DNA from: Fidelibacterota bacterium
GTDB taxonomy: Bacteria; Fidelibacterota; UBA2242
Assembly (NCBI GenBank): GCA_018002295.1
Contig: JAGNGI010000004.1
Coordinates: 3,345-67,344, forward strand
DNA: 64,000 nt
Direction: 5' to 3'
Shown here: piece by piece, positions 3,306-28,968 of the stretch
How positions within the stretch are numbered: position 1 is the stretch's first letter
How the letters are laid out: each line of letters opens with the position of its first letter
Made by a program: the position numbers and the translations under genes
Notes under the pieces: model-generated
What the model was told of the DNA's origin: nothing
Database searches by the model: none
What the model saw: only the letters and a program-made list of their open reading frames with translations

Positions 3306-3963
3306 TAAAATTTTAAACGTTTATAAACCGGCTGGTATCTCTTCCTATCAGGTAGTACGTCGTGTTAAGAACCTTCTTAAAATAAAAAAAGTCGGTCATA
3401 GCGGGACACTCGATCCGTTCGCGGAAGGAGTACTCCTAATTCTGATTGGCGGGGCAACCAAAAAAATGAATGATTTATTGAAATTGCCCAAGTCTTACGA
3501 GGCGATTTTACGTTTGGGTGAAATGACTGCCTCTGGTGACAATACTGCTCCGATTATTAAGACCGCCGCGATTCAATCTATAACAGCGGAAAATTTGATT
3601 GAAATTACCAAAAATTTTATCGGCGTAATCGAACAAATTCCACCAATTTATTCCGCCAAGAAAATCAATGGCCGTCCGTCTTATAAATATGCCCGAAAAG
3701 GACAGGAAATTAAACTGCAACCAACTCAAGTAAATATTTATGAATTGGATTTGAGGCTATTAGATTATAATACGATTTTTATTAAAGTTACCTGTTCGAG
3801 TGGAACCTATATTCGTAAACTAGGCGAAGATCTTGCAGAGGCGCTCGGCACGGTGGGTCATTTGACCAACCTGAAGCGCACCCGGATCGGCAATTATGAC
3901 TGGAAAGAAGCCGTGCCCTATTCGGAATTAAATGGATATTTGCTGGAGAACGCTACGGTATGA
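3214..3963 (+). CDS. truB: tRNA pseudouridine(55) synthase
   Basis: ILNVYKPAGISS…GHSGTLDPFAEGVLLILIGGATK, with the catalytic Asp in the GTLDP motif. The ORF-track start at 3214 overlaps rbfA by ~90 nt, so the true start is uncertain. Confidence 0.85.
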   Translation: MTRLKNMPRISKSYFKKYINRKRIIKTDWSNKILNVYKPAGISSYQVVRRVKNLLKIKKVGHSGTLDPFAEGVLLILIGGATKKMNDLLKLPKSYEAILRLGEMTASGDNTAPIIKTAAIQSITAENLIEITKNFIGVIEQIPPIYSAKKINGRPSYKYARKGQEIKLQPTQVNIYELDLRLLDYNTIFIKVTCSSGTYIRKLGEDLAEALGTVGHLTNLKRTRIGNYDWKEAVPYSELNGYLLENATV

Positions 3964-11273: not shown

Positions 11274-11349
11274 CGGAGCGTAGCGCAGTCCGGATTAGCG
11301 CACCTGAATGGGGTTCAGGGGGTCGGTGGTTCAAATCCACTCGCTCCGA
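11274..11349 (+). tRNA. tRNA-Pro (anticodon GGG)
   Basis: Cloverleaf folded by hand. Acceptor CGGAGCG/CGCTCCG, D-stem GCGC/GCGC, anticodon stem CCTGA/TCAGG with loop ATGGGGT (GGG, then G37), T-arm GGTGG-TTCAAAT-CCACT, discriminator A. CCA is not encoded. Confidence 0.8.
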
Positions 11350-11396
11350 CAAATTTCGATTGAATTAAATAAATTTTTCACGAAATTCAGAACGAA

Positions 11397-12382: not shown

Positions 12383-13657
12383 GTGAAGCCTAATAAACAA
12401 TTACTGATTGCGCATTATACATTACCACCGGCTATAGGAGGAGTTGAGAGTATCCTTAAGCCGTTCGCTGAAGTATTTGCGCGCAATGGCTATTTAGTAA
12501 CAATCCTGAGCGGAGCCGGTTCAATCGAAGGCCAGAATATCAAGACCAGTCTATTACCGGATTTAAATCCAAATAGTCCGCATGTTCGTGAAATTCAGCG
12601 GGTTTTAAAATTCGGCTCACTACCTGAATTTTACGAATATCAAATGCAAAACCTTCAGCGGCGAATCGAAGCCGAAATCGGTAATATAGATACCATTATT
12701 ATTCACAATATAATGACTATGCCTTTTAATCTGATGGCTACTGAAGCTTTTTGGAACTATATCTTAAAATATCCAAATAAAAAGTATTACATCTGGACTC
12801 ATGATCTGGCATGGTTGATTGATGAGTACAAACCTAATTTATACGACCGACGACCATGGTCACTCCTCCGAACTGAAATTCCCCACGGTACTTACATTAC
12901 GGTTTCCGAGTATCGCAGACGTCAGATGGCTGAATTATTAAAAATTGCACGACGAAAAATTATCGTAGTCCCTAATACGATTAAATACCAGGATTTCTTC
13001 AAATTTGAACCAGCAACTAACATAATCGTTGAAGCACTCAAGGTTTTTAGTTGTTATCCAATCATTTTGGTCCCAGCCAGAATAATTCCAAGGAAGAATA
13101 TTGAACGCAGTATTAAAGTAATTGCGGCACTGCGGAATACCTGGCCTAATCTTGTCGGTATCATTACCGGAATGCCTAAGAGGGAGAATGGCGCTTTGAC
13201 AGAATACGCCGCCAGTCTTTATAATTTGGTTCAAGAAAACAACCTGTCCAATAACCTGTTTTTTCTCGGCGATCTTTTCGAGAGATTAAATATCCCGGTA
13301 GAAAAGAATCGAGCTGTGGTCCGTGACCTTTATTTTATCAGTAATTTAGTGCTTTATTTAAGCATGGATGAAGGTTTCGGTTTACCAATTCTTGAAGCAG
13401 GTATCGCCAGAACTCCATTGGCACTCAGTCAAATACCGGTATTTAGAGAAGTAGCGAAAGAAGGTGCTCTATACTTGCCGCTGGATGAGAGTCCGGAATA
13501 TAATGCTAACCGCATAGTAAAATATTTGACAGATAATCAACCGCGGAGCGATGTATTATATAAATCTATCATTCAAAAAAATAATTGGGATGATCTCTGG
13601 GAGAGCCATCTAAATTCCATCTTTAACGAAAGTATGAGTGGAGGCGGGGGGAATTGA
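12383..13657 (+). CDS. glycosyltransferase (GT4-like, GT-B fold)
   Basis: N-terminus LLIAHYTLPPAIGGVESIL and C-terminal EGFGLPILEA motif typical of GT4 enzymes. GTG start. The 3' end overlaps the tmRNA 3' end by ~19 nt. Confidence 0.6.
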   Translation: MKPNKQLLIAHYTLPPAIGGVESILKPFAEVFARNGYLVTILSGAGSIEGQNIKTSLLPDLNPNSPHVREIQRVLKFGSLPEFYEYQMQNLQRRIEAEIGNIDTIIIHNIMTMPFNLMATEAFWNYILKYPNKKYYIWTHDLAWLIDEYKPNLYDRRPWSLLRTEIPHGTYITVSEYRRRQMAELLKIARRKIIVVPNTIKYQDFFKFEPATNIIVEALKVFSCYPIILVPARIIPRKNIERSIKVIAALRNTWPNLVGIITGMPKRENGALTEYAASLYNLVQENNLSNNLFFLGDLFERLNIPVEKNRAVVRDLYFISNLVLYLSMDEGFGLPILEAGIARTPLALSQIPVFREVAKEGALYLPLDESPEYNANRIVKYLTDNQPRSDVLYKSIIQKNNWDDLWESHLNSIFNESMSGGGGN

Positions 13658-13989
13658 ACCCCCGTCCGAAAAAGAGAACTGCAGAATCGCTACGTGTGTA
13701 GTCCGTTGCTGAATCTCGCTTTTACCGTGCCAGCGGACAAACTTGGTAAAAGCCAGTTTGCTGTTTTTAATTCCGTTTACGCAAACCGATAAACGGAACG
13801 AGCCTGCTTTGACGACGCTCTGAACCAGCCTGCAGGCGAGACCGGCCCAGAACGGTCACTTACTTAAGCGTAAGCGACAGTGCCAAAAGAATTGGCATTT
13901 TCGATTCTCAGGTTTATTAACGTGGCCCTCCTGAAAACCACGACACGCTATTCGGCAGATCTTCAATCCCGTCGAATCCATTCGCCCCC
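13639..13989 (-). ncRNA. ssrA: tmRNA (transfer-messenger RNA)
   Basis: Minus-strand 5' end GGGGGCGAAUGGAUUCGACGGG. 3' end GGACGGGGGUUCAAUUCCCCCCGCCUCCA (tRNA-Ala-like T-arm and acceptor with G3-U70; CCA not encoded). Predicted tag reading frame GCC AAU UCU UUU GGC ACU GUC GCU UAC GCU UAA (ANSFGTVAYA), with the resume codon 93 nt from the 5' end. Confidence 0.8.
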
Positions 13990-14147: not shown

Positions 14148-15497
14148 ATGAAATTGAAGACGTTCAAGAAGGGCGTTCATCCAGCAGAGTTTAAAAGTTT
14201 AAGTGATTATAAAAGCATAGAAAAATCGCCTTTACCGACAGAAGTGTCTATTCCGCTTCAGCAACATGTTGGAGCCGCATGTGTACCGGTAGTCGAAAAA
14301 GGTATGGAAGTTAAGACCGGTCAATTGATTGGCAAAAGCGGTGGATTTATATCGAGCAATATCCACGCCTCAATTTCGGGAAAAGTAAAAACGATTGAAA
14401 AATTACCGCACCCTTTGGGAAATAATTCGCTAATGATAAACATCATCGGCGATGGTCACGACGAATGGGTAGAATTACCTGATTCGATTAGCGATTGGGA
14501 AAATCTTACTCCCGAACAAATCAATAAAATTATATTAGACGCCGGAATCGTTGGCTTGGGCGGAGCGGCTTTTCCAACGCAAGTGAAATTAAATCCGCCC
14601 AAAAATAAAACCATTGATACTTTTATCCTTAACGGTTGTGAATGTGAACCTTATTTGACAGCCGATCACCGCATTATGGTCGAACATTCGGAAGAGGTAG
14701 TCCTGGGACTTCGCATTATGATGAAAGCGCTCGGAGTCAGTCGGGCAATAATAGGTATCGAAGCCAATAAACCGGATGCTATTGCGGCGCTAACCAAAGC
14801 AACCGAAAAATTCTGGGGTATTATTGTCCAGCCTCTGAAGGTAAAATATCCCCAAGGTGCCGAGAAGATGTTAATAGATGCCGTTTTAAACCGCAAGGTA
14901 CCCGCCGGCGGATTACCGATGGACGTGGGCGTTGTTGTTAATAATGTCGGCACGGCTTTGGCTGTGGCTGAAGCCGTTACAAAACACAAACCACTGATTG
15001 AAAGAGTCGTTACGGTTACCGGTCAGGGAGTGCGCGAACCAAAAAATATTTTAGCCAGAATCGGCACTCCATTTCAGAATTTAATTGACTTCTGTGGCGG
15101 ACTGACCGACGATACGGTCAAGGTAGTGATGGGCGGTCCAATGATGGGCGTAGCTCAGGCTTCTTTAGCAGTACCGGTTATAAAAGCTACCAGCGGTATT
15201 GTCTGTTTAACGGATAAAATCGCTAGTGAAAGGAAAGAATATCCCTGTATCAAATGTGGGGCTTGCCTCCATGTCTGTCCAATGAATCTAATCCCAACCA
15301 GGCTGGCGCGCTTATCTCAGTTTGCTAAGTGGGATGAAGCCGAACAATATGGTATAGCTAATTGTATCGAATGTGGTTCTTGCGCTTTTATTTGCCCGGC
15401 AGCAATCCCTTTAGTTCACCATATCCGAACTGGGAAAACGCGGGTAGCCGAAATTCAGCGTCAAAAGAGAGGTGAAAAAAAAGCCGTAAGGGTATGA
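14148..15497 (+). CDS. rnfC: Rnf electron-transport complex subunit C
   Basis: GLGGAAFPTQVKL NADH/FMN-binding region plus two 4Fe-4S motifs, CIKCGACLHVCP and CIECGSCAFICP. Confidence 0.85.
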   Translation: MKLKTFKKGVHPAEFKSLSDYKSIEKSPLPTEVSIPLQQHVGAACVPVVEKGMEVKTGQLIGKSGGFISSNIHASISGKVKTIEKLPHPLGNNSLMINIIGDGHDEWVELPDSISDWENLTPEQINKIILDAGIVGLGGAAFPTQVKLNPPKNKTIDTFILNGCECEPYLTADHRIMVEHSEEVVLGLRIMMKALGVSRAIIGIEANKPDAIAALTKATEKFWGIIVQPLKVKYPQGAEKMLIDAVLNRKVPAGGLPMDVGVVVNNVGTALAVAEAVTKHKPLIERVVTVTGQGVREPKNILARIGTPFQNLIDFCGGLTDDTVKVVMGGPMMGVAQASLAVPVIKATSGIVCLTDKIASERKEYPCIKCGACLHVCPMNLIPTRLARLSQFAKWDEAEQYGIANCIECGSCAFICPAAIPLVHHIRTGKTRVAEIQRQKRGEKKAVRV

Positions 15498-15540
15498 AGT
15501 ATCGTTCTGTATCGAGTATTTTATAAGGAAGTTTACTATA

Positions 15541-16572
15541 ATGGAAGAACAACAGAATATTATCCAAGGGGAATCAGGAAAAGAAAAGAAAGTAAAGTCA
15601 GCTCCAAATTCCGTTGACAAAACAACCGAGAAACGACTTTTTATTCTTTCATCTTCGCCACACATTAAAGCTTCCACAAATGTTTCTTTTATTATGTGGC
15701 TGGTTGTGGCTACTTTAGTGCCAACGGTTATTTTCAGTATTTACAATTTTGGATGGCGCTGTCTGACAGTCATAGCTGTTTCTATGGTTACCGCTATGAT
15801 TGCCGAGGAATTATTTAATTTAATTAGACGTCGTAAAATGACAACTTACGATGGCAGTGCCGCTTTGACCGGCTTATTATTAGCATTGTGTTTACCGCCG
15901 GGGTTACCGCTTAGTATGGTCATAATCGGTGCCGCTTTTTCCATTATAATCGGTAAACAAATTTTCGGTGGCCTTGGGCATAATATTTTCAATCCAGCCT
16001 TATTAGGGCGGGCGTTTTTACAAACCAGTTTCCCGATAGCGATGACTACCTGGACGATTCCACGGACGATTGATGCGATTACTACGGCAACCCCGCTTGG
16101 TTCTTATAAATTTGAAAAAACACTGACGCCTTATCTTGACCTTTTCATTGGCAAAGTCGGCGGCTGTATCGGTGAAACGAGTGCTTTGGCTATTCTGATC
16201 GGTGGATTGATATTAATAATTCTGCATATATCCAATTGGCGCATTCCGGTGAGCTATCTTGGTACAGTTGTGGTTTTCAGCGGAATTTTATGGCTCATTA
16301 ATCCGGCACAGTATCCCGATCCGATTTTTCATCTCTTTTCCGGCGGGTTGATGCTGGGGGCTTTTTTTATGGCGACGGATATGGTGACTTCGCCAATAAC
16401 TAATTTAGGAGCCTGGATTTTTGGAATCGGCGCCGGATTTTTGGTTGTCCTTATTCGTCAATTTGGAGGATTACCGGAGGGTGTCATGTATTCAATTTTA
16501 TTGATGAATGGATTCGTTCCGTTGATTAATCGTTATACTCGACCGAAATATTTTGGGGAGGTAAAATCGTGA
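15541..16572 (+). CDS. rnfD: Rnf complex subunit D
   Basis: Polytopic membrane protein of the NqrB/RnfD family (GKQIFGGLGHNIFNPALLGRAF…FMATDMVTSP). Confidence 0.85.
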   Translation: MEEQQNIIQGESGKEKKVKSAPNSVDKTTEKRLFILSSSPHIKASTNVSFIMWLVVATLVPTVIFSIYNFGWRCLTVIAVSMVTAMIAEELFNLIRRRKMTTYDGSAALTGLLLALCLPPGLPLSMVIIGAAFSIIIGKQIFGGLGHNIFNPALLGRAFLQTSFPIAMTTWTIPRTIDAITTATPLGSYKFEKTLTPYLDLFIGKVGGCIGETSALAILIGGLILIILHISNWRIPVSYLGTVVVFSGILWLINPAQYPDPIFHLFSGGLMLGAFFMATDMVTSPITNLGAWIFGIGAGFLVVLIRQFGGLPEGVMYSILLMNGFVPLINRYTRPKYFGEVKS

Positions 16573-17159
16573 ATAAGTCACTCAAACTGGTAGTTGTCTT
16601 AACCGTGACGGCTTTATTATCGGGATTAATATTGGCTGTGTTAAATACCTACACTGCTCCGCGTATTGAATTGAACGAAAATAAGACCTTATTGGAAGCT
16701 ATCGAATATGTAATCCCGGGCCAAAAAACCTGTGACGTAAAGGTCATCAAAGATGTTACTTTTTATGTTGGTAAAGATGATAAAGGGCAGGTAATCGGCG
16801 TGGCGTTTGTAGCAGAGGGTGATGGATTTCAGAGCCGTTTACGTATTCTGGTCGGTATGGATCCGGAAATGACTAAAATTGTACAAATGAAAATATTATC
16901 CCAAGCCGAAACTCCCGGACTCGGGACAAAAATTGAAAACGATCCAACGAACAAAACGGATGCATTTTGGTTTTTAAAGCAATTTGTTGATTTGCCAGTC
17001 GTAAATCCGATATCCGTTGTCAAGGGACAAGCCGCGGATAAAAGTAAATCGCAAATTCAAGCCATTACCGGCGCAACCATTTCTTCGAGGGCGGTCGTAG
17101 ATATTGTTAACGCCGCTATTGAAAAAAACCGCGCCCTTTATTTAGAGAAGGTGAAATAA
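16569..17159 (+). CDS. rnfG: Rnf complex subunit G (FMN-binding)
   Basis: N-terminal TM segment and FMN_bind motif AITGATISSRAV. GTG start after GGAGG. Confidence 0.8.
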   Translation: MNKSLKLVVVLTVTALLSGLILAVLNTYTAPRIELNENKTLLEAIEYVIPGQKTCDVKVIKDVTFYVGKDDKGQVIGVAFVAEGDGFQSRLRILVGMDPEMTKIVQMKILSQAETPGLGTKIENDPTNKTDAFWFLKQFVDLPVVNPISVVKGQAADKSKSQIQAITGATISSRAVVDIVNAAIEKNRALYLEKVK

Positions 17160-17160
17160 T

Positions 17161-17769
17161 ATGGCGAAGTCAAAAATTTCAGTAACGCAGGAATTTCTCA
17201 AAGGACTCTGGAACGAGAATCCCATCCTGCGTATGGTTTTAGGAACCTGCCCAACTTTAGCCGTTACAACATCAGCTATTAATGGCGTTACGATGGGATT
17301 GGCAGTAATATTTACGCTGGTTATGTCCAGCATGATGATCTCTCTTCTAAGAAAATTGATTCCCAACGAAGTCCGGATTGCGACGTTTATCATCATAATT
17401 GCGACTTTTGTGACGGTGGCAGACCGAGTTCTGGCTGCTTTTTATCCCGAAATGAGCAAGGCGCTGGGACCTTTTGTTCCATTAATTGTCGTGAATTGCA
17501 TCGTATTTGCACGTCAGGAAGCCTTTGCCTCAAAAAATCCAGTCGGTCGTTCTGTTATTGATGCGCTCGGAATGAGTGTCGGGTTTACTCTGGTATTACT
17601 GATAATGGGTTCATTTCGCGAACTAATTGGTAATGGTACTATTTTTTCGCATCAAATTATGCCGTTAACCTTTCAACCCTGGATGGCTATAGCTCTGCAA
17701 CCGGGTGCTTTCTTGACGTTGGGTTTTATAATCGGATTTACCAATTGGCTTAATACGAAAAGGAAGTAA
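17161..17769 (+). CDS. rnfE: Rnf complex subunit E
   Basis: RnfE/NqrD-family membrane protein (MVLGTCPTLAVTTSAINGV). Confidence 0.8.
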   Translation: MAKSKISVTQEFLKGLWNENPILRMVLGTCPTLAVTTSAINGVTMGLAVIFTLVMSSMMISLLRKLIPNEVRIATFIIIIATFVTVADRVLAAFYPEMSKALGPFVPLIVVNCIVFARQEAFASKNPVGRSVIDALGMSVGFTLVLLIMGSFRELIGNGTIFSHQIMPLTFQPWMAIALQPGAFLTLGFIIGFTNWLNTKRK

Positions 17770-17771
17770 AA

Positions 17772-18344
17772 ATGGATCTGATATTAATTTTCATCTCAGC
17801 CGCGGTTATCAATAATTATGTCTTGGTGTCATTCCTCGGAATTTGTCCCTTCATCGGAGTCTCGAAAAAACTCGGTTCCGCGGTTAGTATGGGAATGGCG
17901 ACGACCTTCGTGATGACGATAACGGCCGCGGTTACCTGGTTATTGAATAAGTATATTCTGGTCGGTTTACACCTGGAATTCCTCCAAATTGTATCTTTCA
18001 TCTTGGTAATTGCCTCGCTGGTCCAATTGGTTGAAATGTTTATCAAAAAAGTCAGCCGTCCGCTCTATGATGCGCTCGGTATTTTCCTGCCGCTGATCAC
18101 GACCAACTGTGCCATTCTGGGGCTGGCACTTTTCTTGGTGATGAAGCAATATAATTTTATTGAGAGTATCGTATTTGGTTTTGCTTCCGGGGCAGGCTTT
18201 ACCTTGGCGCTGGTAATTATGGCTGGCATCCGGGAAGAGTTGGAACTGGCGGATGTGCCTGAACCTTTTAAAGGAGCACCGATTACTTTAATCGTCGCCG
18301 GTTGTTTAGCCCTAGCATTTATGGGATTTTCTGGATTAATCTAA
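17772..18344 (+). CDS. rnfA: Rnf complex subunit A
   Basis: RnfA/NqrE family (NNYVLVSFLGICPFIGVSKKL). Confidence 0.8.
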   Translation: MDLILIFISAAVINNYVLVSFLGICPFIGVSKKLGSAVSMGMATTFVMTITAAVTWLLNKYILVGLHLEFLQIVSFILVIASLVQLVEMFIKKVSRPLYDALGIFLPLITTNCAILGLALFLVMKQYNFIESIVFGFASGAGFTLALVIMAGIREELELADVPEPFKGAPITLIVAGCLALAFMGFSGLI

Positions 18345-18362
18345 TCTCAAAAGGTATCTGAA

Positions 18363-19181
18363 ATGAATTCCACAACGTTTTTATACAGTTTATTAAGTAT
18401 GGGCGGAATTGGTTTGTTCTTTTCCATATTAATTGCAGTAGCTAATAAAAAACTACACGTTGAAGAAGACCCGAGAATCAGCTTGATTGCTGAGTGTTTA
18501 CCGGGTGCCAATTGCGGCAGTTGCGGCTATGCCGGCTGTAATAATTTTGCTGAGGCTTTAGCCGGTGGTAAATCGCAAATCTCAAATTGTCCGGTCTGTA
18601 GTCCATCAGCCCGGGAGGAGATAGCCCGGATTTTGGGAGTGAGTGTCGAAATTGGCGAGCGGCAAGTGGCGGTGGTTTTTTGTCAGGGCGGCGACGATGT
18701 CGCTACTAAAAAAGCCGAGTATCGCGGCATCAAAACTTGTTCTGCAGCTAATTTGGTTAGTGGCGGTGAACGTGCCTGCAGTTACGGATGTATTGGACTT
18801 GGTGATTGCGTGGCGGTTTGTCCATTTGACGCTATTCATATGGATGAAAATAACTTACCGGTCGTAGACCGCGCCAAATGCACCGGTTGTGGCAATTGCG
18901 TTACTGCCTGTCCACGGGGCATTATCGAATTGCATCCAATCAGTCATCATGTTTTTGTGCTTTGTAGGAATCGTGACATCGGTAGAATTGCCCGTACGGT
19001 TTGTAAGCGTGCCTGTACCGGCTGTCTATTGTGCGAAAAAGCCGTCAACGGCCAAGGCTTCAAAGTCGTGGATAATCTTGCCGTGGTTGATCACGACGTT
19101 TATACCAAGGAACTGGTTTTGCCGACCGAAAAATGCCCAACGAAAGCTATTGTAATCCTTGGAACTAAGGATGAACAATAA
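18363..19181 (+). CDS. rnfB: Rnf complex subunit B (polyferredoxin)
   Basis: N-terminal TM segment, CGSCGYAGCNNFAEALAGG motif and several CxxCxxCxxxCP ferredoxin motifs. Confidence 0.8.
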   Translation: MNSTTFLYSLLSMGGIGLFFSILIAVANKKLHVEEDPRISLIAECLPGANCGSCGYAGCNNFAEALAGGKSQISNCPVCSPSAREEIARILGVSVEIGERQVAVVFCQGGDDVATKKAEYRGIKTCSAANLVSGGERACSYGCIGLGDCVAVCPFDAIHMDENNLPVVDRAKCTGCGNCVTACPRGIIELHPISHHVFVLCRNRDIGRIARTVCKRACTGCLLCEKAVNGQGFKVVDNLAVVDHDVYTKELVLPTEKCPTKAIVILGTKDEQ

Positions 19182-19644
19182 CGACCAATATTTCAAAACT
19201 GATGATGAAACGGCGACGGTGATTGATGCTGACCAGCACTGGGTAACGGTCGAACTGGCAGAAAAAGATACCTGCCACTCCTGCGGTGCAAAAATGATCT
19301 GTCGCCCCAATTCTACGGGCAAACGCATTCTTAAAATACCTAATACCATTAATGCTAAAGTGGGCGATACGGTTTTAATCGAGCAAATCGGTGCTAATCA
19401 GCTAAAATTAACCATAGTTCAATATGGTTTACCTTTATTTGGTTTTCTGTTTGGAGTACTAATCGCTAACCGATTTATTAAGCATAGTATTTTTGGAATT
19501 CCAGCGGACATCGTGCAGATGTTTTGTGGAATTATAGTAGTTATCTTGACCGGGTTCGTCATTTATTTTTGGAGTAAACGTAAAGCCAAAAGTGGATTTA
19601 ATGTCTTTCGTTTGCGTCAGACATTAAATGGCAAGTTTGAATGA
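19171..19644 (+). CDS. RseC/MucC-family (SoxR-reducing-system-like) membrane protein
   Basis: Small protein with an N-terminal Cys pair (CHSCGAKMIC) and two C-terminal TM helices. Often appended to rnf operons. ATG 19171 overlaps the end of rnfB. Confidence 0.55.
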   Translation: MNNNDQYFKTDDETATVIDADQHWVTVELAEKDTCHSCGAKMICRPNSTGKRILKIPNTINAKVGDTVLIEQIGANQLKLTIVQYGLPLFGFLFGVLIANRFIKHSIFGIPADIVQMFCGIIVVILTGFVIYFWSKRKAKSGFNVFRLRQTLNGKFE

Positions 19645-19660: not shown

Positions 19661-20665
19661 ATGCTTAATTTCAAAATCCCTATTCCTTACTTTTTATTTT
19701 GTGTTTTTCTGTTGACAAGTTGCCAACCTAAAAGCAAGCTGGTCAAGGCTCAATCAACGCGTTTCGCTATGGGAACGGTTATCGAAATAACCGTATTAGA
19801 TACGACCGAAGCCGAAGCCAATAATGCGCTTGAAGCCGGGTTTGCCGAAATCAACCGCATTTCCACCCAATTCTGGGAAGGCAATCCCGAGAGCCCAATC
19901 TATGCTTTCAACCATCGTTCCACTGAAACAGTCACTATGCCGCTTGAAATTTTGGAGTTGATTGCTCGTTGTGAAGCTTATTCTACAAAGCTCGATGGTG
20001 CGTTTGACATTACCGTTGGGACGATTTCGCCGCTTTATAATTTCAAGGGTGATTCTCCACGACCGCCGGATCTTGCTATGATTAAAGCACTTCTGCCGGC
20101 TGTAAATTACCAAAACCTTACCATTGATTTTGCGAAAGCGCAATTGGGTGCTAAAAATCGTCAGACCAAAATTGGACTTGGTGCAGTTGCCAAAGGTTAC
20201 GGTGTTGATCGAGCAATCACAGTCATTGCAAGACAAAATATCGCTGGTGCATTAGTCAATGCCGGCGGAGATTTACGAGCACTGAGGCGTGTAGATGGAC
20301 AAAAGTGGAGAATCGGGATTCAGGATCCGCGTCAAGCCGATAATATTCTACTTGTAATTGAATTCGACAGTGGGGCAGTGGCTACTTCCGGAGATTATGA
20401 GAAATTTTTTATGTATGAAGGCAAACGCATTCATCATATCTTAAATCCACGTACCGGTTTACCGGCTGACTCCTGTCAATCCACAACTGTAATTGCGCCA
20501 ATTGCTGAGCAAGCTGACGCAATGGCAACTGGATTATTTGTTTTGGGCGCTTTAGCCGGACAAAAAGCTCTGGAAAACTTCCCCAATTGCGAAGTGCTTT
20601 GGATTTGCGCCGATGGCCAGAAGGTTCAATCTGCCGGTTTTGAGAAATATTTAGCACAGCACTAG
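19661..20665 (+). CDS. apbE: FAD:protein FMN transferase (ApbE), lipoprotein
   Basis: Lipoprotein signal (…FLLTSC) and ApbE motifs ALVNAGGDLRAL and ATSGDYEKFFMYEGKRIHHILNPRTG. ApbE flavinylates RnfG/RnfD. An alternative upstream ATG lies at 19628. Confidence 0.8.
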   Translation: MLNFKIPIPYFLFCVFLLTSCQPKSKLVKAQSTRFAMGTVIEITVLDTTEAEANNALEAGFAEINRISTQFWEGNPESPIYAFNHRSTETVTMPLEILELIARCEAYSTKLDGAFDITVGTISPLYNFKGDSPRPPDLAMIKALLPAVNYQNLTIDFAKAQLGAKNRQTKIGLGAVAKGYGVDRAITVIARQNIAGALVNAGGDLRALRRVDGQKWRIGIQDPRQADNILLVIEFDSGAVATSGDYEKFFMYEGKRIHHILNPRTGLPADSCQSTTVIAPIAEQADAMATGLFVLGALAGQKALENFPNCEVLWICADGQKVQSAGFEKYLAQH

Positions 20666-22257: not shown

Positions 22258-22629
22258 ATGCCAATAAAACCCAAAATATTAATCGTTGATGATGAAGCGG
22301 TAATTCGTGAAATCTACGGGGATTTCTTGGAACAGAATGGATTTGAAGTGACGACAGCTTTAAATGTCGAAACGGCTTTGGAGTCTATAAAGGCTAAAAA
22401 GCCGGATTTAATTCTATTAGATATTGTGATGCCTTTTCGTAATGGCTTTGATCTTTACGACCAAGTAATAGTTGATTACCCTGATATTAAATTTGTCTTT
22501 ATGACCGGTTATGATGATGATATAAAGATTACTGACCGTTTAAGCAAATCTGGGAAGAAATGGTTTGCTAAACCAATTAAATTAGAAGAAATGTTAGAAG
22601 TAATTCGGAATGAGTTATCAGCTTTTTAA
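22258..22629 (+). CDS. stand-alone response-regulator receiver domain (CheY-like)
   Basis: ILIVDDEAVIREIY…KPDLILLDIVMPFRNGFDL…FMTGY…AKP receiver motifs. No output domain. Confidence 0.7.
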   Translation: MPIKPKILIVDDEAVIREIYGDFLEQNGFEVTTALNVETALESIKAKKPDLILLDIVMPFRNGFDLYDQVIVDYPDIKFVFMTGYDDDIKITDRLSKSGKKWFAKPIKLEEMLEVIRNELSAF

Positions 22630-23393
22630 ACTGATAGATTCCGGCGGATATGTTTTTTAAAATATTTTATCTTTATCGGTAAACAGTGCTCGTTTACTAA
22701 TTTCTGCACGATTTTGTAGTTATCCATAGTCCGAACGATAACTGTAGCCTCGAAATGAGACGTTGTATTTTTATGGCATTCTACCAGAGAATTCAAGCGA
22801 TCCAGAAAAGATTCTTCCATAATTGATTGAGTGGTCTCAAAATTAAAACAACGCAATTTTTCGGGTTTTTCGATTATCATGTCCGGAATATAACCTTTCC
22901 AATAGGGCGGGTGAGGGCTATAATTATCCAGTAATTTGGAATAGACTTTGTAACCACGTTTTGAATATACTCTAAGTAAATATGAGAGCAAGTTAAATTG
23001 ATCGTGTTTAAAACGAGTGGGAAGAAGCGAACGTCGTAGTGAATTGAGAACTCGAGCATAGAGAACATTGAGATCAAAAGGCTTGGTAACATAATCGTCA
23101 GCACCAGAGACTAGTCCATCGACTTGAAATTCGGTAGATGCTTTTGCGGTTAACATAATCACCGGAATAAAAGCCGTGATTGGATGAGTCTTTAAAGTTT
23201 TCAAAATAGAGAGGCCGTCTATATCCGGTAAATTAATATCAAGAATAATTAAATCGGGTTCTTTACTGATAGCTAGATCAAGTACTTGTGCTCCTTCTGT
23301 AGTCGCGTAAACTTCAAATCCACGAGCTGAAAAATAGGATGTGATCAATTCTATAATGTTAGGATCATCATCAACTGCTAAAATTTTTTTCAT
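22626..23393 (-). CDS. response regulator: receiver domain plus ~135-aa uncharacterised C-terminal domain
   Basis: N-terminal half is a receiver (ILAVDDDPNIIELI…DLIILDINLPDIDG…VIMLTAKAS…GADDYVTKP). The C-terminal half fits no known output domain. Stop codon overlaps the stop of the convergent 22258..22629 gene. Confidence 0.65.
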   Translation of the reverse strand: MKKILAVDDDPNIIELITSYFSARGFEVYATTEGAQVLDLAISKEPDLIILDINLPDIDGLSILKTLKTHPITAFIPVIMLTAKASTEFQVDGLVSGADDYVTKPFDLNVLYARVLNSLRRSLLPTRFKHDQFNLLSYLLRVYSKRGYKVYSKLLDNYSPHPPYWKGYIPDMIIEKPEKLRCFNFETTQSIMEESFLDRLNSLVECHKNTTSHFEATVIVRTMDNYKIVQKLVNEHCLPIKIKYFKKHIRRNLSV

Positions 23394-23744
23394 TACTCTA
23401 TAATTTCATTAAACAATCAATTATTATCAATAAAAAAAGTTAGATGAAAAAAGAAAATATATTTTTAAGAGGAATGAAAATCTGAGGAGTTATCTACGAA
23501 ATATTATAGATTAACCAAAAATTTATTGTAACCAGGTCTAAAATATTTTGTCTAATTAACTATATTTGCTATTTGAATATTGGCATAAAATTTGTAAATT
23601 AAGTTTCGTTATTTGACTTAATGATAATGTCCAAAAGAAGATAGATTTCCCCTCCCCCTCCCCGGATGTGCCGTAATATCCCTCAAAATCCCCCTCTTTT
23701 ACGTTCGGGGAGGGAAACCTCAAAATCACAGAAAAACCATAGAT

Positions 23745-23775
23745 AAGCCGCTTACAAGAGCGGCTTTTTTATTTT
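23745..23775 (+). terminator. intrinsic terminator (AAGCCGCT-tacaag-AGCGGCTT followed by a T-run)
   Basis: Perfect 8-bp GC-rich stem, 6-nt loop, then TTTTTTATTTT. No CDS lies upstream on this strand. Confidence 0.5.
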
Positions 23776-24129
23776 ATCAAAAATTCATTATTTATGATCA
23801 AAAATTGATAAATTTTTATAACCCTTCGTAACATCCTTATATCCATATTTTAGAAATAGATTAGGTTAACGCGTAATAGTTTTTTGTAATTCACAGGATT
23901 GTCGATCACATTTAAGCAAGCTTTAGACTATTCGTGTCAACACTCCCGCGTCGAGACTAGGTGGAGTTACTGATAATATTGTTCAACCGCGGCAGGGTTT
24001 GGTGTAGTCTTTAGTATTTTTAGACTCAGGATTGAATCCAGAGTTAAACAGGTTCAACTCCCGACGGAGGAGGAGGTTACTCAAGATTTGATTTGCTGGG
24101 GTCTTAGTATCACCTAATCCAATTTTGAC

Positions 24130-24161
24130 AGTGGGGGATTGGAATCTTCCCACTTTTTATT
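24130..24161 (+). terminator. intrinsic terminator (AGTGGG…CCCACT followed by TTTTTATT)
   Basis: 6-bp stem with a nested GATT/AATC mini-stem, followed by a T-run. About 55 nt upstream of the next promoter. Confidence 0.45.
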
Positions 24162-24216
24162 ACCAAAAGTGAATACCATATCTTTAGCTCAGACAAAATC
24201 AGTAAAAAAAAAACTA

Positions 24217-24245
24217 TTGACTTAAATATTTTAATACGCTATATT
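24217..24245 (+). promoter_or_regulatory. sigma70-type promoter candidate for the GH13 gene (TTGACT-17-TATATT), preceded by an A10 tract
   Basis: TTGACT at 24217-24222, 17-nt spacer, TATATT at 24240-24245. An A10 run lies immediately upstream. Confidence 0.45.
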
Positions 24246-24276
24246 CTTTTAGTAGTAACTCAGATTAGAACTACAA

Positions 24277-26124
24277 TTGAAAAACGCGACAGAAAATCAA
24301 GTCCCAAAAGGCAAATTTTCACTGGCAAGAGGATTGCTTGTCATCGGAATAGTAGCTGGGATTTGTTTGAGTGACAACCTCTCAGATAGAACATACTGGA
24401 CTTACGATGCTATCTGGTATCAAATATTCCCAGAGCGCTTTAGGAACGGTGATCCGACTAATGATCCAACGATTGAAACGCTAAAAGGCACCTGGCCATA
24501 TGAACCTCAAACGCAATGGAGCATTATGCCCTGGACTGCTGATTGGTATAAACTCCAGCCTTGGGAAAAATCCAACCAACGCGACTTTTACTATAATGCT
24601 CAATTGCGTCGTTATGGCGGTGATATCGAGGGAATAATTGATAAACTCGATTATCTTGTAGATTTAGGAATCAATGCAATTTATTTGAATCCAGTCTTTG
24701 AATCGGCTTCGTCGCATAAATACGGTGCTACAATGTATCATCATATTGATAATAATTTTGGGCCTGATCCGGCTGGTGATATAGCAATTTGGCAAACTGA
24801 AAATCCTAATGATCCTTTGACCTGGCAGTGGACTTCCGCTGATAAATTATTTCTGAAACTAATACAGGAGGTGCATACCCGTCAAATGAAAATAATCATT
24901 GATGGAGTATTCAATCATGTTGGCATACCTTTCTGGGCTTTTCAGGACGTCAAAAAAAATGGAGAAGCCAGTCCATACGCCGATTGGTTTGTGATAGAGT
25001 TCTTTGATGATCCGAGTACAATCGAAGATGAATTTGAATATCAAGGCTGGAATGGAATTCCGGATTTACCGGAGATCTGGGAAGACGAGAATGGTCCTGT
25101 ACAAGGATTTCGGGCGCATATAAAAGCCGTGGTTGAAAGATGGGGTGATCCAAATGGTGATGGCGATCCGTCGGACGGGATTGACGGCTGGCGATTGGAT
25201 GTGGCTGAGAAGGTCAGTAAAAATTTCTGGCGTGATTTTCGCAAATGGGTGAAAAGCATAAATCCCGAGGCATATTTAACTGGTGAAATATGGTGGGAAG
25301 ATTTTATGAATAATAAGATGTTCGATGCTTCACCATGGTTGCAGGGCGATATTTTTGACGGCGTGATGAATTATCGTTTCGGCGATGCTATGCTTAAAGC
25401 CTTTGTTGACAGAGAAATGAGGATAAAACCATCCGAGCTTGATCAATTATTAGGCGATATTAGAGAAAAATATCCGCTACCCGCTCAATATCAACTGCAA
25501 AATATAATTGGTAGTCACGATAATGAGCGTTTTGCCAGTATGTTATTAAATCCAGACCGCTGGATCGATCACGGTGGCAATCTGGTTTACAATAAAGATT
25601 TTAAGATAAACCGTCCTTCGGATGAGCTCCGACAAATCCAAAAGACAATTCTTGTTTTTCAATTTACTTATATCGGAGCACCTTATATTTATTATGGCGA
25701 TGAAGTGGGGATGTGGGGAGCAGATGATCCCGACAATCGAAAACCAATGGTTTGGGATGATATGCAATATGAACCGGAGACTACTCATCCATTTGGAATA
25801 AAGAGACCTGTAGATTCCGTTAAAGTTGATACAGATTTGTTCAATTTCTATAAATCTGTAATAAATCTCAGAAAAAATCATGAATGTCTAAGAAGAGGCA
25901 GGTATAAAACAATATTGACTGACGACAAAAGGGGGATTTTCGGATTTGAGCGTAAATATGATACTGAGACCATCTACATCTTTGCAAATTTGAATGATAA
26001 ACCTATCAAAATGAGCGAGATAAATTTTGATGTCACAAAATGCGAAAAGATTTTTACAGTTAATACCGATACAAATTATCTCGGGTCGAAAGGAATAGTA
26101 GTTTATAAAATTATTAAAGGGTAA
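24277..26124 (+). CDS. GH13 alpha-amylase-family enzyme (neopullulanase/cyclomaltodextrinase-like), exported
   Basis: GH13 regions I (IIDGVFNHVG), II (GWRLDVAEKV), III (GEIWWED) and IV (IGSHDNERF). N-terminal hydrophobic segment. TTG start. Confidence 0.8.
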   Translation: MKNATENQVPKGKFSLARGLLVIGIVAGICLSDNLSDRTYWTYDAIWYQIFPERFRNGDPTNDPTIETLKGTWPYEPQTQWSIMPWTADWYKLQPWEKSNQRDFYYNAQLRRYGGDIEGIIDKLDYLVDLGINAIYLNPVFESASSHKYGATMYHHIDNNFGPDPAGDIAIWQTENPNDPLTWQWTSADKLFLKLIQEVHTRQMKIIIDGVFNHVGIPFWAFQDVKKNGEASPYADWFVIEFFDDPSTIEDEFEYQGWNGIPDLPEIWEDENGPVQGFRAHIKAVVERWGDPNGDGDPSDGIDGWRLDVAEKVSKNFWRDFRKWVKSINPEAYLTGEIWWEDFMNNKMFDASPWLQGDIFDGVMNYRFGDAMLKAFVDREMRIKPSELDQLLGDIREKYPLPAQYQLQNIIGSHDNERFASMLLNPDRWIDHGGNLVYNKDFKINRPSDELRQIQKTILVFQFTYIGAPYIYYGDEVGMWGADDPDNRKPMVWDDMQYEPETTHPFGIKRPVDSVKVDTDLFNFYKSVINLRKNHECLRRGRYKTILTDDKRGIFGFERKYDTETIYIFANLNDKPIKMSEINFDVTKCEKIFTVNTDTNYLGSKGIVVYKIIKG

Positions 26125-26169: not shown

Positions 26170-28968
26170 ATGAGATATAAGGATTGGTTAATAACAGTTG
26201 TTCTGATTTTAACTGCAGGGTATTTATTCGGAGGTAATACTGGTAAAATTACTGGTATAGTTACTGATAGTCAAACTGGTCTTCCTTTAATAGGTTGTAA
26301 CATAATGCTTGAGGATACTTATTTGGGTGCGGCATCCGATACAGATGGACGATATATGATTCTTAATGTACCGCCCGGCGAATATCGTTTAAAAGCTCAA
26401 ATGATTGGTTACCAGCCAAAAGTGATAACCGGCGTGATTGTATCAGCTGATTTGACAACTACTATCAATATTGGGCTTTCGACCCAGGTTTTAGAGGGTG
26501 AAGAAGTGATAGTTACTGCAGAGCGCAAAATGGTTGTCAAAGATATGACTGCGACTGCTTCCCATGTTAAAGCTGAAGAACTAGCCGCTTTACCAGTGAC
26601 TGAAGTTAGCGACGTTCTTGAAATGCAAGCCGGATATGTAGATGGGAGTTTACGGGGAGGCAGAAGAGGTGAAGTTGCCTATTTAATAGATGGTATTCCG
26701 GTAACCGATTCTTATGATCGTAGTGCGGTCATTGATGTCAATAAAAATATGATTCAGGAATTGCAGGTAATTTCCGGAGCGTTTAATGCAGAATACGGAA
26801 AGGTAATGTCAGGCATCGTCAATATCACTACCAAGCAAGGTAGCAACAAGCACGGTGCGTCGCTAGAAATGTATATTGGAGATTATCTTAGTACACATGA
26901 CGAAATCTTTGATAATATTGGGTCAATAAATCCTCTAAATATCCATAATGCTGAAATCAGTTTTTTTGGACCATTAATAAAGGATAAGTTATTTTACAAT
27001 TTCAATACGCGCTATATTTACTTTGGGGGTTGGCTTCAAGGTCAGAACCGTTATAAACCAACTAGTATATTAGCTGTGTCTCCCGATGGTTCGCATTTCT
27101 TGCTGGACTCAACTACTATGTTAGGAGATCAGAAGTGGGTCAATATGAACTGGAACGAAAAGTTGTATTTTCAAGGACAATTAATCTACCGGCTTTCTAA
27201 CCGAAGTAGTATTTATTATAATCTTTTTTACGATAATAAAGATTACCAGGATTATGATCGTATGTTCAAATATAATCCGGCGGGAATGTTAAAGAAAAAC
27301 CTAACCGCTGAAACGCATTTACTGAAGTTTCAGCGACAATTAAGTTCTAAAACCTTTTTCACTCTGGCTGGCTCATATTATTATCGTAAATATACCGGCA
27401 GATTGTCTGCCGATACCAGTTACAACGATAGCACCACCTATGTCCACCCGGCTTACCTTTATCAATATCCTTATCAATTTTATTTTGGTGGGACTCAAAA
27501 TGATCACGAATATCGTGACAGTAGAACATACCTTGCGAAATGGGATATGACTTCCCAGATAAATGGACAACATCAGATAAAGGGCGGTTTGGAATTTCAA
27601 CAGCATGATATTTCATTAAGAACATTTAATATTCGTCCAGCGACTGGTGAGACCTATATAGACTTTGCATCCGGATTGAATATACCATCTACCTGGAATC
27701 CATATATTCATCCGACGATTTTGGATAATAGTACGATTTATGCTAGCTATTACCGTCATAAACCTTATGAATTTGCCGGATATTTACAAGATAAAATGGA
27801 GTTTAGCGAGTTAATCATTAATATCGGGGTAAGATTTGATTATTTTGAACCGGATGGTGTTGTGCTTGCCGATCCCAGTGACCCTGAAATCTATGAGCCA
27901 ATTAAACCTGAAAATCGTTATCATGATCTTAACGGAAATGGTGTTCAGGATCCTGGCGAACCAGAAGTCACTTTGGAGGAACGGAGACAGTATTGGTATA
28001 AAAAAGCCAGCCCAAAATATCAATTTAGCCCTAGAATCGGATTGTCATTTCCAATTAGTGATCGCGGGGTATTTCATTTTTCTTATGGTCATTTTTTTCA
28101 AATTCCCAACTTTAATTATTTATATATGAATCCTGATTTTGATCTTGGTTCTGGAACCGGTAATCAAGGAGTAATTGGAAATGCGGATTTGAAGCCAGAA
28201 CAAACTATCGTGGGAGAAATCGGAGTTCAGCAACAATTAAGTGATAATTTTTCAGTTGACATTACTGCCTATCTGAAAGACATAAGAGACTTGACCGGAA
28301 CGAGAGCAGAAGAGATTATAGTTTATGGCGGAGCGGCCTCTTATAGCCGATTAGTTAATAGTGATTTTGGTGTAGTAAAAGGTATTACTATAGCACTTAA
28401 TCAGCAGAATCCGAGCGGTTTATATACCAGTTTTGATTATACGCTCCAAATTGCTAAAGGCACTGCATCAGATCCGGAAGCATACCGTAATGCGATTGCT
28501 GGTGGAAACCAACCAGAAATTCAACTTAATCCCTTAGATTGGGATCAACGCCATACAATTAATGGAACAGTGGGATATAATCACAAAAATTATGGAATAA
28601 ATTTTATCGGTCGCTGGGGAAGTGGTTTGCCCTATACTCCGCAATCAAGTGAAGATATTACATCACTTTTAACTAATGCTGGTACTAAACCACCTACCCT
28701 AACAATTGATGCTAAATCTTACTACCGATTCACCTTATCAGGAAGATATTCGGTTGAATTATTTATCAGAATTCAGAATTTATTTGATAAATTGAATGAA
28801 GTTAATGTTTATGACGAGACCGGTCGAGCTGGTTTTACGACCGATGAAGCCCGAGTAGAAGCTTTAAATATTAAAACTCCGATTAATTCGGTTCACGAGT
28901 GGTTTACCGACCCAACGTATTATTCCGAACCACGTCGAGTCGAAATAGGAATGAGGATAAGTATATGA
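26170..28968 (+). CDS. TonB-dependent outer-membrane receptor with N-terminal carboxypeptidase-regulatory-like domain (SusC-like architecture)
   Basis: Signal peptide, CarbopepD_reg-like N-terminus (ITGIVTDSQTGLPLIGCNIML…GEYRLKAQMIGY), plug region (VTAERK…LAALPVTEVSDVLEMQAGY…LRGGRRGEVAYLIDGIPV) and a long barrel. No SusD-like gene follows. Confidence 0.65.
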   Translation: MRYKDWLITVVLILTAGYLFGGNTGKITGIVTDSQTGLPLIGCNIMLEDTYLGAASDTDGRYMILNVPPGEYRLKAQMIGYQPKVITGVIVSADLTTTINIGLSTQVLEGEEVIVTAERKMVVKDMTATASHVKAEELAALPVTEVSDVLEMQAGYVDGSLRGGRRGEVAYLIDGIPVTDSYDRSAVIDVNKNMIQELQVISGAFNAEYGKVMSGIVNITTKQGSNKHGASLEMYIGDYLSTHDEIFDNIGSINPLNIHNAEISFFGPLIKDKLFYNFNTRYIYFGGWLQGQNRYKPTSILAVSPDGSHFLLDSTTMLGDQKWVNMNWNEKLYFQGQLIYRLSNRSSIYYNLFYDNKDYQDYDRMFKYNPAGMLKKNLTAETHLLKFQRQLSSKTFFTLAGSYYYRKYTGRLSADTSYNDSTTYVHPAYLYQYPYQFYFGGTQNDHEYRDSRTYLAKWDMTSQINGQHQIKGGLEFQQHDISLRTFNIRPATGETYIDFASGLNIPSTWNPYIHPTILDNSTIYASYYRHKPYEFAGYLQDKMEFSELIINIGVRFDYFEPDGVVLADPSDPEIYEPIKPENRYHDLNGNGVQDPGEPEVTLEERRQYWYKKASPKYQFSPRIGLSFPISDRGVFHFSYGHFFQIPNFNYLYMNPDFDLGSGTGNQGVIGNADLKPEQTIVGEIGVQQQLSDNFSVDITAYLKDIRDLTGTRAEEIIVYGGAASYSRLVNSDFGVVKGITIALNQQNPSGLYTSFDYTLQIAKGTASDPEAYRNAIAGGNQPEIQLNPLDWDQRHTINGTVGYNHKNYGINFIGRWGSGLPYTPQSSEDITSLLTNAGTKPPTLTIDAKSYYRFTLSGRYSVELFIRIQNLFDKLNEVNVYDETGRAGFTTDEARVEALNIKTPINSVHEWFTDPTYYSEPRRVEIGMRISI

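Follow-up and report, generated by a model that had tools for sequence, protein, structure and literature searches.

A candidate small RNA family divergent from a response-regulator gene in Marinimicrobia

Introduction

Among the described regulatory RNAs closest to the locus reported here are the Qrr small RNAs (sRNAs) of the Vibrionaceae (RF00378), which are activated by LuxO together with sigma-54, and the RsaE/RoxS sRNAs (RF01820), whose exposed C-rich motifs pair with G-rich ribosome-binding sites. Sigma-54 promoters carry a -24/-12 signature (consensus TGGCACG-N4-TTGCW) in which GG and G(C) stand at a fixed spacing of 10 nucleotides (nt). A sigma-54-type promoter and exposed C-rich motifs are found together in a 64-kb stretch of bacterial DNA, hereafter the window, within the 883-nt gap (23394-24276) that separates a response-regulator gene on the minus strand (22626-23393) from a GH13 gene on the plus strand (24277-26124). 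The source of the window belongs to the Marinimicrobia (Candidatus Neomarinimicrobiota, Fidelibacterota), the best relatives of the GH13 protein (87-60% identity) being found in metagenome-assembled genomes of that phylum. The Marinimicrobia, which are also known as SAR406 and are almost uncultured, abound in oceans, sediments, and digesters, and no regulatory RNA described from them turned up in literature searches. We describe here a predicted sRNA gene in the first part of the gap (element 1) and a fast-evolving spacer that follows it (element 2). One real, previously undescribed sRNA gene followed by unconstrained spacer, with no second sRNA, is together with the mechanism proposed below our joint best explanation of the gap, and we hold it with moderate confidence.

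An earlier, sequence-only reading had proposed two independent sRNAs, and no attenuator, in this gap. The first of them stood, supported by a promoter of its own, a core of extreme conservation, and covariation in the terminator, while the second, which proved lineage-specific and unstructured and has an unconserved terminator, did not. That reading's statement that no open reading frame (ORF) of 60 or more amino acids lies in the spacer is confirmed by the ORF list of 23394-24276, where the longest ORFs have 57 and 56 amino acids and are both on the minus strand. Two GC-richer islands (~23640-23775 and 23900-24160) stand out from the AT-rich DNA of the gap. When the gap was compared by BLAST with related loci, L001-L004, the four nearest species, proved to have kept 23394-23843, and 24195-24276, containing the GH13 promoter and untranslated region (UTR), was widely conserved, while 23844-24194 had no match at all. 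A search of the whole window with Rfam 15 at gathering thresholds returned only tmRNA and tRNA-Pro, and no family in the gap. At E values up to 10, the interval 23300-24400 gave only low scores, nearly all overlapping terminator 1; the other two were CRISPR-DR18 (16.4 bits, E 8.4), in the loop of the main stem, and U6, just downstream. No Rfam match in the gap was obtained for Qrr (RF00378), RsaE (RF01820), CrcZ, GlmY/Z, CsrB/Rsm, 6S, SRP, or RNase P RNA; the sequence-only reading had been unable to assign its RNAs to the last three by eye, and the covariance scan agrees.

A Probable Small RNA Gene With an Ultra-Conserved Core

Judged by its sequence features, element 1 is very likely a real, independent sRNA gene. 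The 5′ end of its predicted transcript (Table 1) was placed by promoter geometry and the 3′ end by the U-run of the terminator. Versions of the sRNA were gathered through homologues of the regulator, through GH13, and from a single metagenome scan that used a 21-nt pattern from the core, yielding 23 distinct sequences that share a nearly unchanged 38-nt block. Loci retrieved through proteins (L001-L004, L101-L104, L131-L134) show equal invariance of this block, with regulators only 42-78% identical to that of the window. In an alignment of five species, 23645-23722 is almost invariant and the flanks have diverged; the sister strain L114 has 0 differences at the 78 sites of this core, vs. 37 at 531 four-fold degenerate sites (7%) in the flanking genes. 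A covariance model of the sRNA (R1) matched the window once (108 bits) and had no match in over 70 non-syntenic loci, and a scan of viral contigs for the sRNA core gave no match. The YUUUUGA-type motif near the predicted 5′ end lies ~16-17 nt past the -12 element in most lineages. We take element 1 to represent a new sRNA family, one whose genomic partner is both unusual and conserved; the family could serve for an Rfam entry and for the annotation of metagenomes.

The predicted RNA folds better than shuffled sequences (z = -4.6 for 23607-23775 and z = -5.1 for 23630-23780), and RNAalifold yields one long-range stem of 14 bp (P1) together with the terminator. The long-range pairing of a C-rich with a G-rich segment noted in the sequence-only reading was thereby upheld, with the arms of P1 dominating the fold. 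Across 15 distinct sequences, 98.5% of P1 cells were paired, vs. 36-62% in slid controls. Two pairs show compensatory changes, from C-G to U-A (L124/L129/L132) and from C-G to G-C (L132), and three more show one-sided changes that preserve pairing through wobbles; covariation in P1 is sparse because the sequence hardly varies. The loop closed by the stem has ~31 nt and is invariant in its 5′ half (GCCGUAAUAUCCCUCA), an invariant single-stranded C-run precedes the stem, and about five CCUC/CCCUC motifs occur along the RNA. An alternative register of P1 (23647-57 with 23707-17) was ruled out by the A-C mismatch that a G-to-A change creates in L124/L129, and base pairing between the 5′ UUUUGA and the UCAAAA of the loop was ruled out since it shows no covariation.

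The terminator at the end of element 1, which had been described from the sequence as clean, was likewise recovered as a hairpin followed by a U-run. Both are present in every lineage with differing stem sequences, and seven of the eight predicted terminator pairs have changed on both sides. The gene after the sRNA is a convergent M49 peptidase gene in most lineages, and GH13 only in the clade of the window; the sRNA is therefore not a leader. Loop length varies by 1-5 nt among lineages (30-36 nt) and no pattern of third-position variation was found, which excludes a coding function as a peptide.

The predicted promoter of element 1 is of the sigma-54 type, and, like the link to the response-regulator gene, it was absent from the sequence-only reading. 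Its site is the sole match to TGGCAY-N5-TTGY in the window. The pattern [T/C]GGCA[C/T]-N5-TTG[C/T] occurs in 23/23 versions, 51-82 nt upstream of the core, and the five spacer bases vary. Several relatives, the deep lineages among them, come closer to the consensus: L131 has TGGCAC-N5-TTGCA, L128, L129, and L134 have TGGCAT-N5-TTGCA, L104 has TGGCACG, and the -12 element is the canonical GC in L128, L129, L131, L132, and L134. A Sigma54_activat gene is encoded on the Marinimicrobia contig L106, and no upstream activator sites were identified for the sRNA promoter. Read by eye, the sequence in the clade of the window also offers a weak TTGAAT-16-TAAATT that might overlap the -24/-12 elements. 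A Bacteroidetes-type -33/-7 promoter was considered for the sRNA and ruled out by its wrong spacing.

The Divergent Response Regulator

Wherever a locus includes both flanks, the sRNA and regulator genes almost always point away from each other, and the protein identity of the regulator drops to 42-54% across lineages that keep the sRNA. The exceptions are L119, in which ftsZ lies upstream of the sRNA and no regulator adjoins it, and L106/L107, in which the regulator has no neighboring sRNA. The regulator consists of a receiver domain and a C-terminal region with a sub-threshold AHJR-like match, which shows the alpha-beta-beta-beta-alpha-beta core of restriction-endonuclease-like folds. P169 and D170 (PD), E185, K175, and K178 are conserved in this domain, and strand 3 has no canonical ExK; a search of PDB sequences with the C-terminal profile gave no meaningful match. 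Both hexamers of the predicted regulator promoter lie inside blocks that are invariant in five species (TTGTAACC and TGTC.AA, alignment A1), and in L104 their spacing is preserved relative to the regulator gene and not to the sRNA promoter. The regulator family (P0001-P0060, 42-96% identity) appears confined to Marinimicrobia, and the order observed around it is MFS transporter, single receiver-domain protein, regulator, sRNA, and M49 peptidase.

A Fast-Evolving Spacer Downstream

Element 2 is, by contrast with the element before it, most probably not a conserved functional RNA, as far as sequence comparison can tell. It is present in all contigs of the same species, and the equivalent spacer in L001-L004 consists of 66-1460 nt of unrelated sequence. 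BLAST against the window, more than 100 loci, and phage and plasmid collections found no homologue outside the species, and an Rfam search of element 2 alone, at E values up to 10, returned nothing. Within the species, the sister strain L114 differs at 47 of 312 sites (15%) over 23850-24161, which exceeds the 7% at four-fold sites given above; divergence is 9.6% in 23850-24015, 22.8% in 24016-24129, and 15.6% in the hairpin at 24130-24161. Neither 23840-24165 nor 24010-24165 folds better than shuffled sequences (z = -0.5).

Substitutions among strains (L089, L092, and L114) disrupt the predicted stems and are uncompensated: G23865A affects the closing stem, G23948T, G23950T, and G23989C affect a CCGCG/CGCGG pairing, T23931A and G23934A affect the stem 23869-81/23927-37, and G24029A and T24045A affect the hairpin 24023-45. 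Comparison with relatives yielded the compensatory changes that would mark a conserved RNA in element 1 and not in element 2. The repeated hairpin motifs in which the sequence-only reading had seen signs of RNA did not survive comparison. TTTAGACT occurs 4 times in the window vs. 2.2 expected, a count reached by 17 of 100 shuffles, and the CAAC..CTCCCG..GAG motifs are mutated in L114, where CAACTCCCG...GGAGG has become TAATTCCTA...GGAGTTTA. The hairpin of the second terminator of that reading is present, and the clean T5 run that follows is found only in the window. In the 12 other contigs used for comparison the sequence is CTTATTATC (T24156A, T24161C), which interrupts the U-run, and no terminator is called in L114. 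A hairpin, a U-run, and short repeats in a spacer can thus mimic an sRNA. Derivation of element 2 from the cation-efflux ORF of L002 or from an ancestral M49 peptidase gene was also tested, and it is a remnant of neither.

The spacer of L001 equivalent to element 2 contains, at 3351-3627, a tandem array with 3.3 copies of an 84-nt unit and no ORF. The unit consists of two 42-nt half-units, each beginning TCATTTGACAATTT..., and iteron-like sites or a decayed repeat are both possibilities for this array.

Proposed Mechanism and Rival Explanations

In the mechanism that we propose, the sRNA would be induced via sigma-54 and a putative enhancer-binding activator and would then act in trans, its exposed anti-Shine-Dalgarno-like motifs (CCCCUCC, UCCCUCA, CCCC(C)UC, and CCUCA) pairing with the G-rich ribosome-binding regions of target mRNAs; the divergently encoded regulator would likely belong to the same circuit. 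By analogy with RsaE/RoxS, base pairing of this kind is a plausible mechanism, which we advance tentatively and rate as falling somewhat short of probable. The sRNA is a testable candidate, as its promoter class predicts induction, its invariant C-rich core predicts pairing partners, and its fixed neighbor suggests a circuit. A number of observations weigh against this account as a whole. Both ends of the transcript are placed from sequence, the core identity of L108-L130 is partly ascertainment given that these loci were retrieved with the exact 21-nt core pattern, and the covariation in P1 amounts to two events. In the clade of the window the -12 element reads TTGT (GT) and not the canonical TTGC, and six-frame translation of the window, screened for GAFTGA and RpoN-box motifs, revealed neither rpoN nor a gene for an enhancer-binding protein. 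Having no AAA+ or helix-turn-helix (HTH) domain, the adjacent regulator cannot itself be the sigma-54 activator. As to targets, exact complements of the C-rich motifs occur in the window only in the sRNA itself. RNAduplex showed no consistent signal above shuffles between the sRNA and the translation-initiation region of the regulator in 16 lineages, and no clear outlier among 43 gene starts in the window, where only about a third of the genes have a Shine-Dalgarno-like motif. Lastly, near-identity over ~65 nt exceeds what a seed usually needs, and a partner in the form of a protein or machinery fits it at least as well.

This breadth of invariance keeps alive a model in which the sRNA works mainly through a protein, either as a sponge or decoy carrying CCUC/CCCUC sites or as a putative ligand, substrate, or guide of the neighboring regulator with its nuclease-like fold. 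The repetition of the C-rich motif and the divergent arrangement with the regulator, kept at almost all loci that include both flanks, even where protein identity is as low as 42%, speak for such a model. However, a reading of the invariant residues finds no clear (D/E)xK triad in strand 3, the domain may be a plain DNA-binding output domain that regulates transcription, and L119 and L106/L107 show that sRNA and regulator can occur without adjoining one another; we consider a protein-based function unlikely, if worth keeping in view. A stronger version, in which sRNA and regulator would form one signaling module and a phosphorylation-controlled nuclease-fold protein would bind, process, or be guided by the sigma-54-induced RNA, is quite speculative and carries little of our belief; we know of no RNA-coupled output domain of this kind described for two-component systems. 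Far less probable still is that element 1 is not an RNA gene at all and acts instead as a DNA-level element (a G-quadruplex/i-motif or a site bound by protein), as a leader acting in cis, or as a small ORF rich in proline. The five G-runs on the minus strand, and the minus-strand ORFs of 57-68 amino acids that overlap element 1 in the window and in L001, would be in keeping with such readings. They are opposed by a promoter and a terminator kept in orientation and spacing across 23 lineages, by an RNA stem maintained through compensatory changes, by a downstream gene that is convergent or different among lineages, and by loop indels of 1-5 nt that would disrupt any frame, with third-position variation absent.

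For element 2, the alternatives to unconstrained spacer are a young, strain-specific second sRNA and a decayed tRNA. The former would run over ~23850-24161, from a promoter-like TTGATA-18-TAACAT (23805-23834) to the hairpin at 24133-24151. This site, with a score of 9/12, is retained in L114 and L082, the window has a hairpin with a T5 run, and the segment forms a GC-richer island (0.41-0.46) amid AT-rich spacer. Yet the segment is absent from the sister species, diverges by 15% where four-fold sites differ by 7%, folds like shuffled sequence with every predicted stem broken without compensation, has no Rfam match, and shows an interrupted U-run in the 12 other contigs and loss of the terminator in L114, which together make a second sRNA very unlikely. 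If element 2 were a relic of one or two tRNA genes, or of an attachment site derived from a tRNA, its remains would be the GC island, the downstream hairpin, and the TCAAC motifs that resemble a T-loop, in agreement with a rate of evolution that is neutral or faster. The exact 20-nt match of GGTTCAACTCCCGACGGAGG to a T-arm and acceptor strand lies in a tRNA-Ile(TAT) gene (L135, 8909-8981) on a 145-kb IMG/VR contig with at least five clustered tRNA genes, and ARAGORN at an 80% threshold reports two adjacent, tandem pseudo-tRNAs (23917-24002 and 23982-24073). However, one such 20-mer match in a very large viral collection is near a rough estimate of chance, and 11 of the 20 matched bases are universal T-arm consensus. 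ARAGORN makes ~28 false calls per 64 kb at the 80% threshold and finds 0 genes in element 2 at its default and -ps settings. The 5′ acceptor strand is not evident, and the surroundings contain neither an integrase nor an intact tRNA gene. Given this noisy threshold and an Rfam tRNA model that stays silent at E values up to 10, a decayed tRNA is a possibility only, and an improbable one.

Other Features of the Window

The near-consensus GH13 promoter named in the sequence-only reading was confirmed and is conserved in many Marinimicrobia; only 1 of 66 sites differs from L114 over 24211-24276. Elsewhere in the window, the tag peptide encoded by a tmRNA gene (13636-13989, minus strand) is unusual (ENANSFGTVAYA), and 11274-11350 on the plus strand contains a tRNA-Pro(GGG) gene. 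By reading of their translations, the ORFs at 14148-19644 resemble an operon for an Rnf-type electron-transport complex, followed by an ApbE-like gene (Pfam ApbE on a homologue). At 20000-20200, within the ApbE-like gene, L092, L094, and L098 share 12 clustered substitutions in 200 nt, with 0-4 in neighboring bins, a pattern suggestive of a recombination tract or of a patch that is locally hypervariable. The alignment of L081 covers both flanks of 27869-28117 (~250 nt, in a TonB-dependent-receptor-like gene) and not the stretch itself, and the gene is uncalled there in L081; this points to a segment that is divergent or rearranged among strains.

Table 1. Coordinates of predicted features in and around the gap, numbered from the first nucleotide of the window.
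Feature	Position	Strand	Remarks
Predicted sRNA transcript (element 1)	23607-23772	+	~165 nt (141-177 nt in relatives)
Sigma-54-type promoter TGGCAT-AAAAT-TTGT (-24 GG, -12 GT)	23581-23595	+	Motif match
YUUUUGA-type motif TTATTTGA	23609-23616	+	Near predicted 5′ end; G3, T7-T9, G10 invariant in alignment A2
Ultra-conserved 38-nt block UCCCCUCCCCCUCCCCGGAUGUGCCGUAAUAUCCCUCA	23648-23685	+	35-38/38 identical in 23 distinct versions; 15 distinct lineages in one count
Stem P1, 5′ strand CCCUCCCCGGAUGU	23656-23669	+	Pairs with 23701-23714
Stem P1, 3′ strand ACGUUCGGGGAGGG	23701-23714	+	Pairs with 23656-23669
Intrinsic terminator 1	23745-23775	+	9-bp stem, ACAA loop (hairpin 23745-23766), U-run
Lineage-specific, fast-evolving spacer (element 2)	23776-24194	.	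Absent from L001-L004; no conserved RNA apparent
tRNA-like fragment GGTTCAACTCCCGACGGAGG (T-arm + 3′ acceptor strand)	24051-24070	+	Exact 20-nt match to phage tRNA-Ile
Terminator-like hairpin 2	24130-24161	+	Hairpin 24133-24151; weak, not conserved
GH13 promoter TTGACT-17-TATATT (24217-24245) and 5′ UTR	24195-24276	+	Conserved upstream of GH13 in L001-L015, L041
Response-regulator gene	22626-23393	-	Receiver domain + restriction-endonuclease-like (PD-(D/E)xK fold) C-terminal domain
Regulator promoter, -35 TAGACA, 18-nt spacer, -10 TACAAT	23525-23554	-	Consensus scan 10/12

Comparison With Known Small RNAs

Dependence on sigma-54 has been described for sRNAs of several kinds. GlmY/GlmZ also have sigma-54 promoters, some of them overlapping sigma-70 promoters, but they resemble the sRNA described here in neither sequence nor structure, and GlrR-type sites were not identified at this locus. 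CrcZ, in the sigma-54/CbrB-dependent pair CrcZ/CrcY, shares with it the dependence that the promoter here would imply, and CrcZ/CrcY, like the protein sponges CsrB/RsmZ, carry several copies of a short motif per RNA, as is seen here. The motif is C-rich (CCUC) in the present sRNA, in contrast to the A-rich or GGA motifs of those RNAs, and no Rfam match links them.

Qrr offers a parallel in gene organization. A trans-acting sRNA, it likewise combines a sigma-54 promoter, an intrinsic terminator, and a long, absolutely conserved block, and qrr1 adjoins a response-regulator gene, as does the sRNA of the window. The two differ in architecture, however, Qrr having four stem-loops where the present RNA has one long-range stem and a terminator; they show no similarity by sequence or covariance model and come from different phyla, and the regulator adjacent to element 1 has no AAA+ or HTH domains. 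RsaE/RoxS and other Firmicutes sRNAs of the C-rich, anti-Shine-Dalgarno type differ from it in promoter type, length, and fold, and no Rfam match connects them with it. What they have in common with element 1 are exposed CCCC and CCUC motifs, and this C-rich analogy is the basis of the pairing mechanism proposed above.

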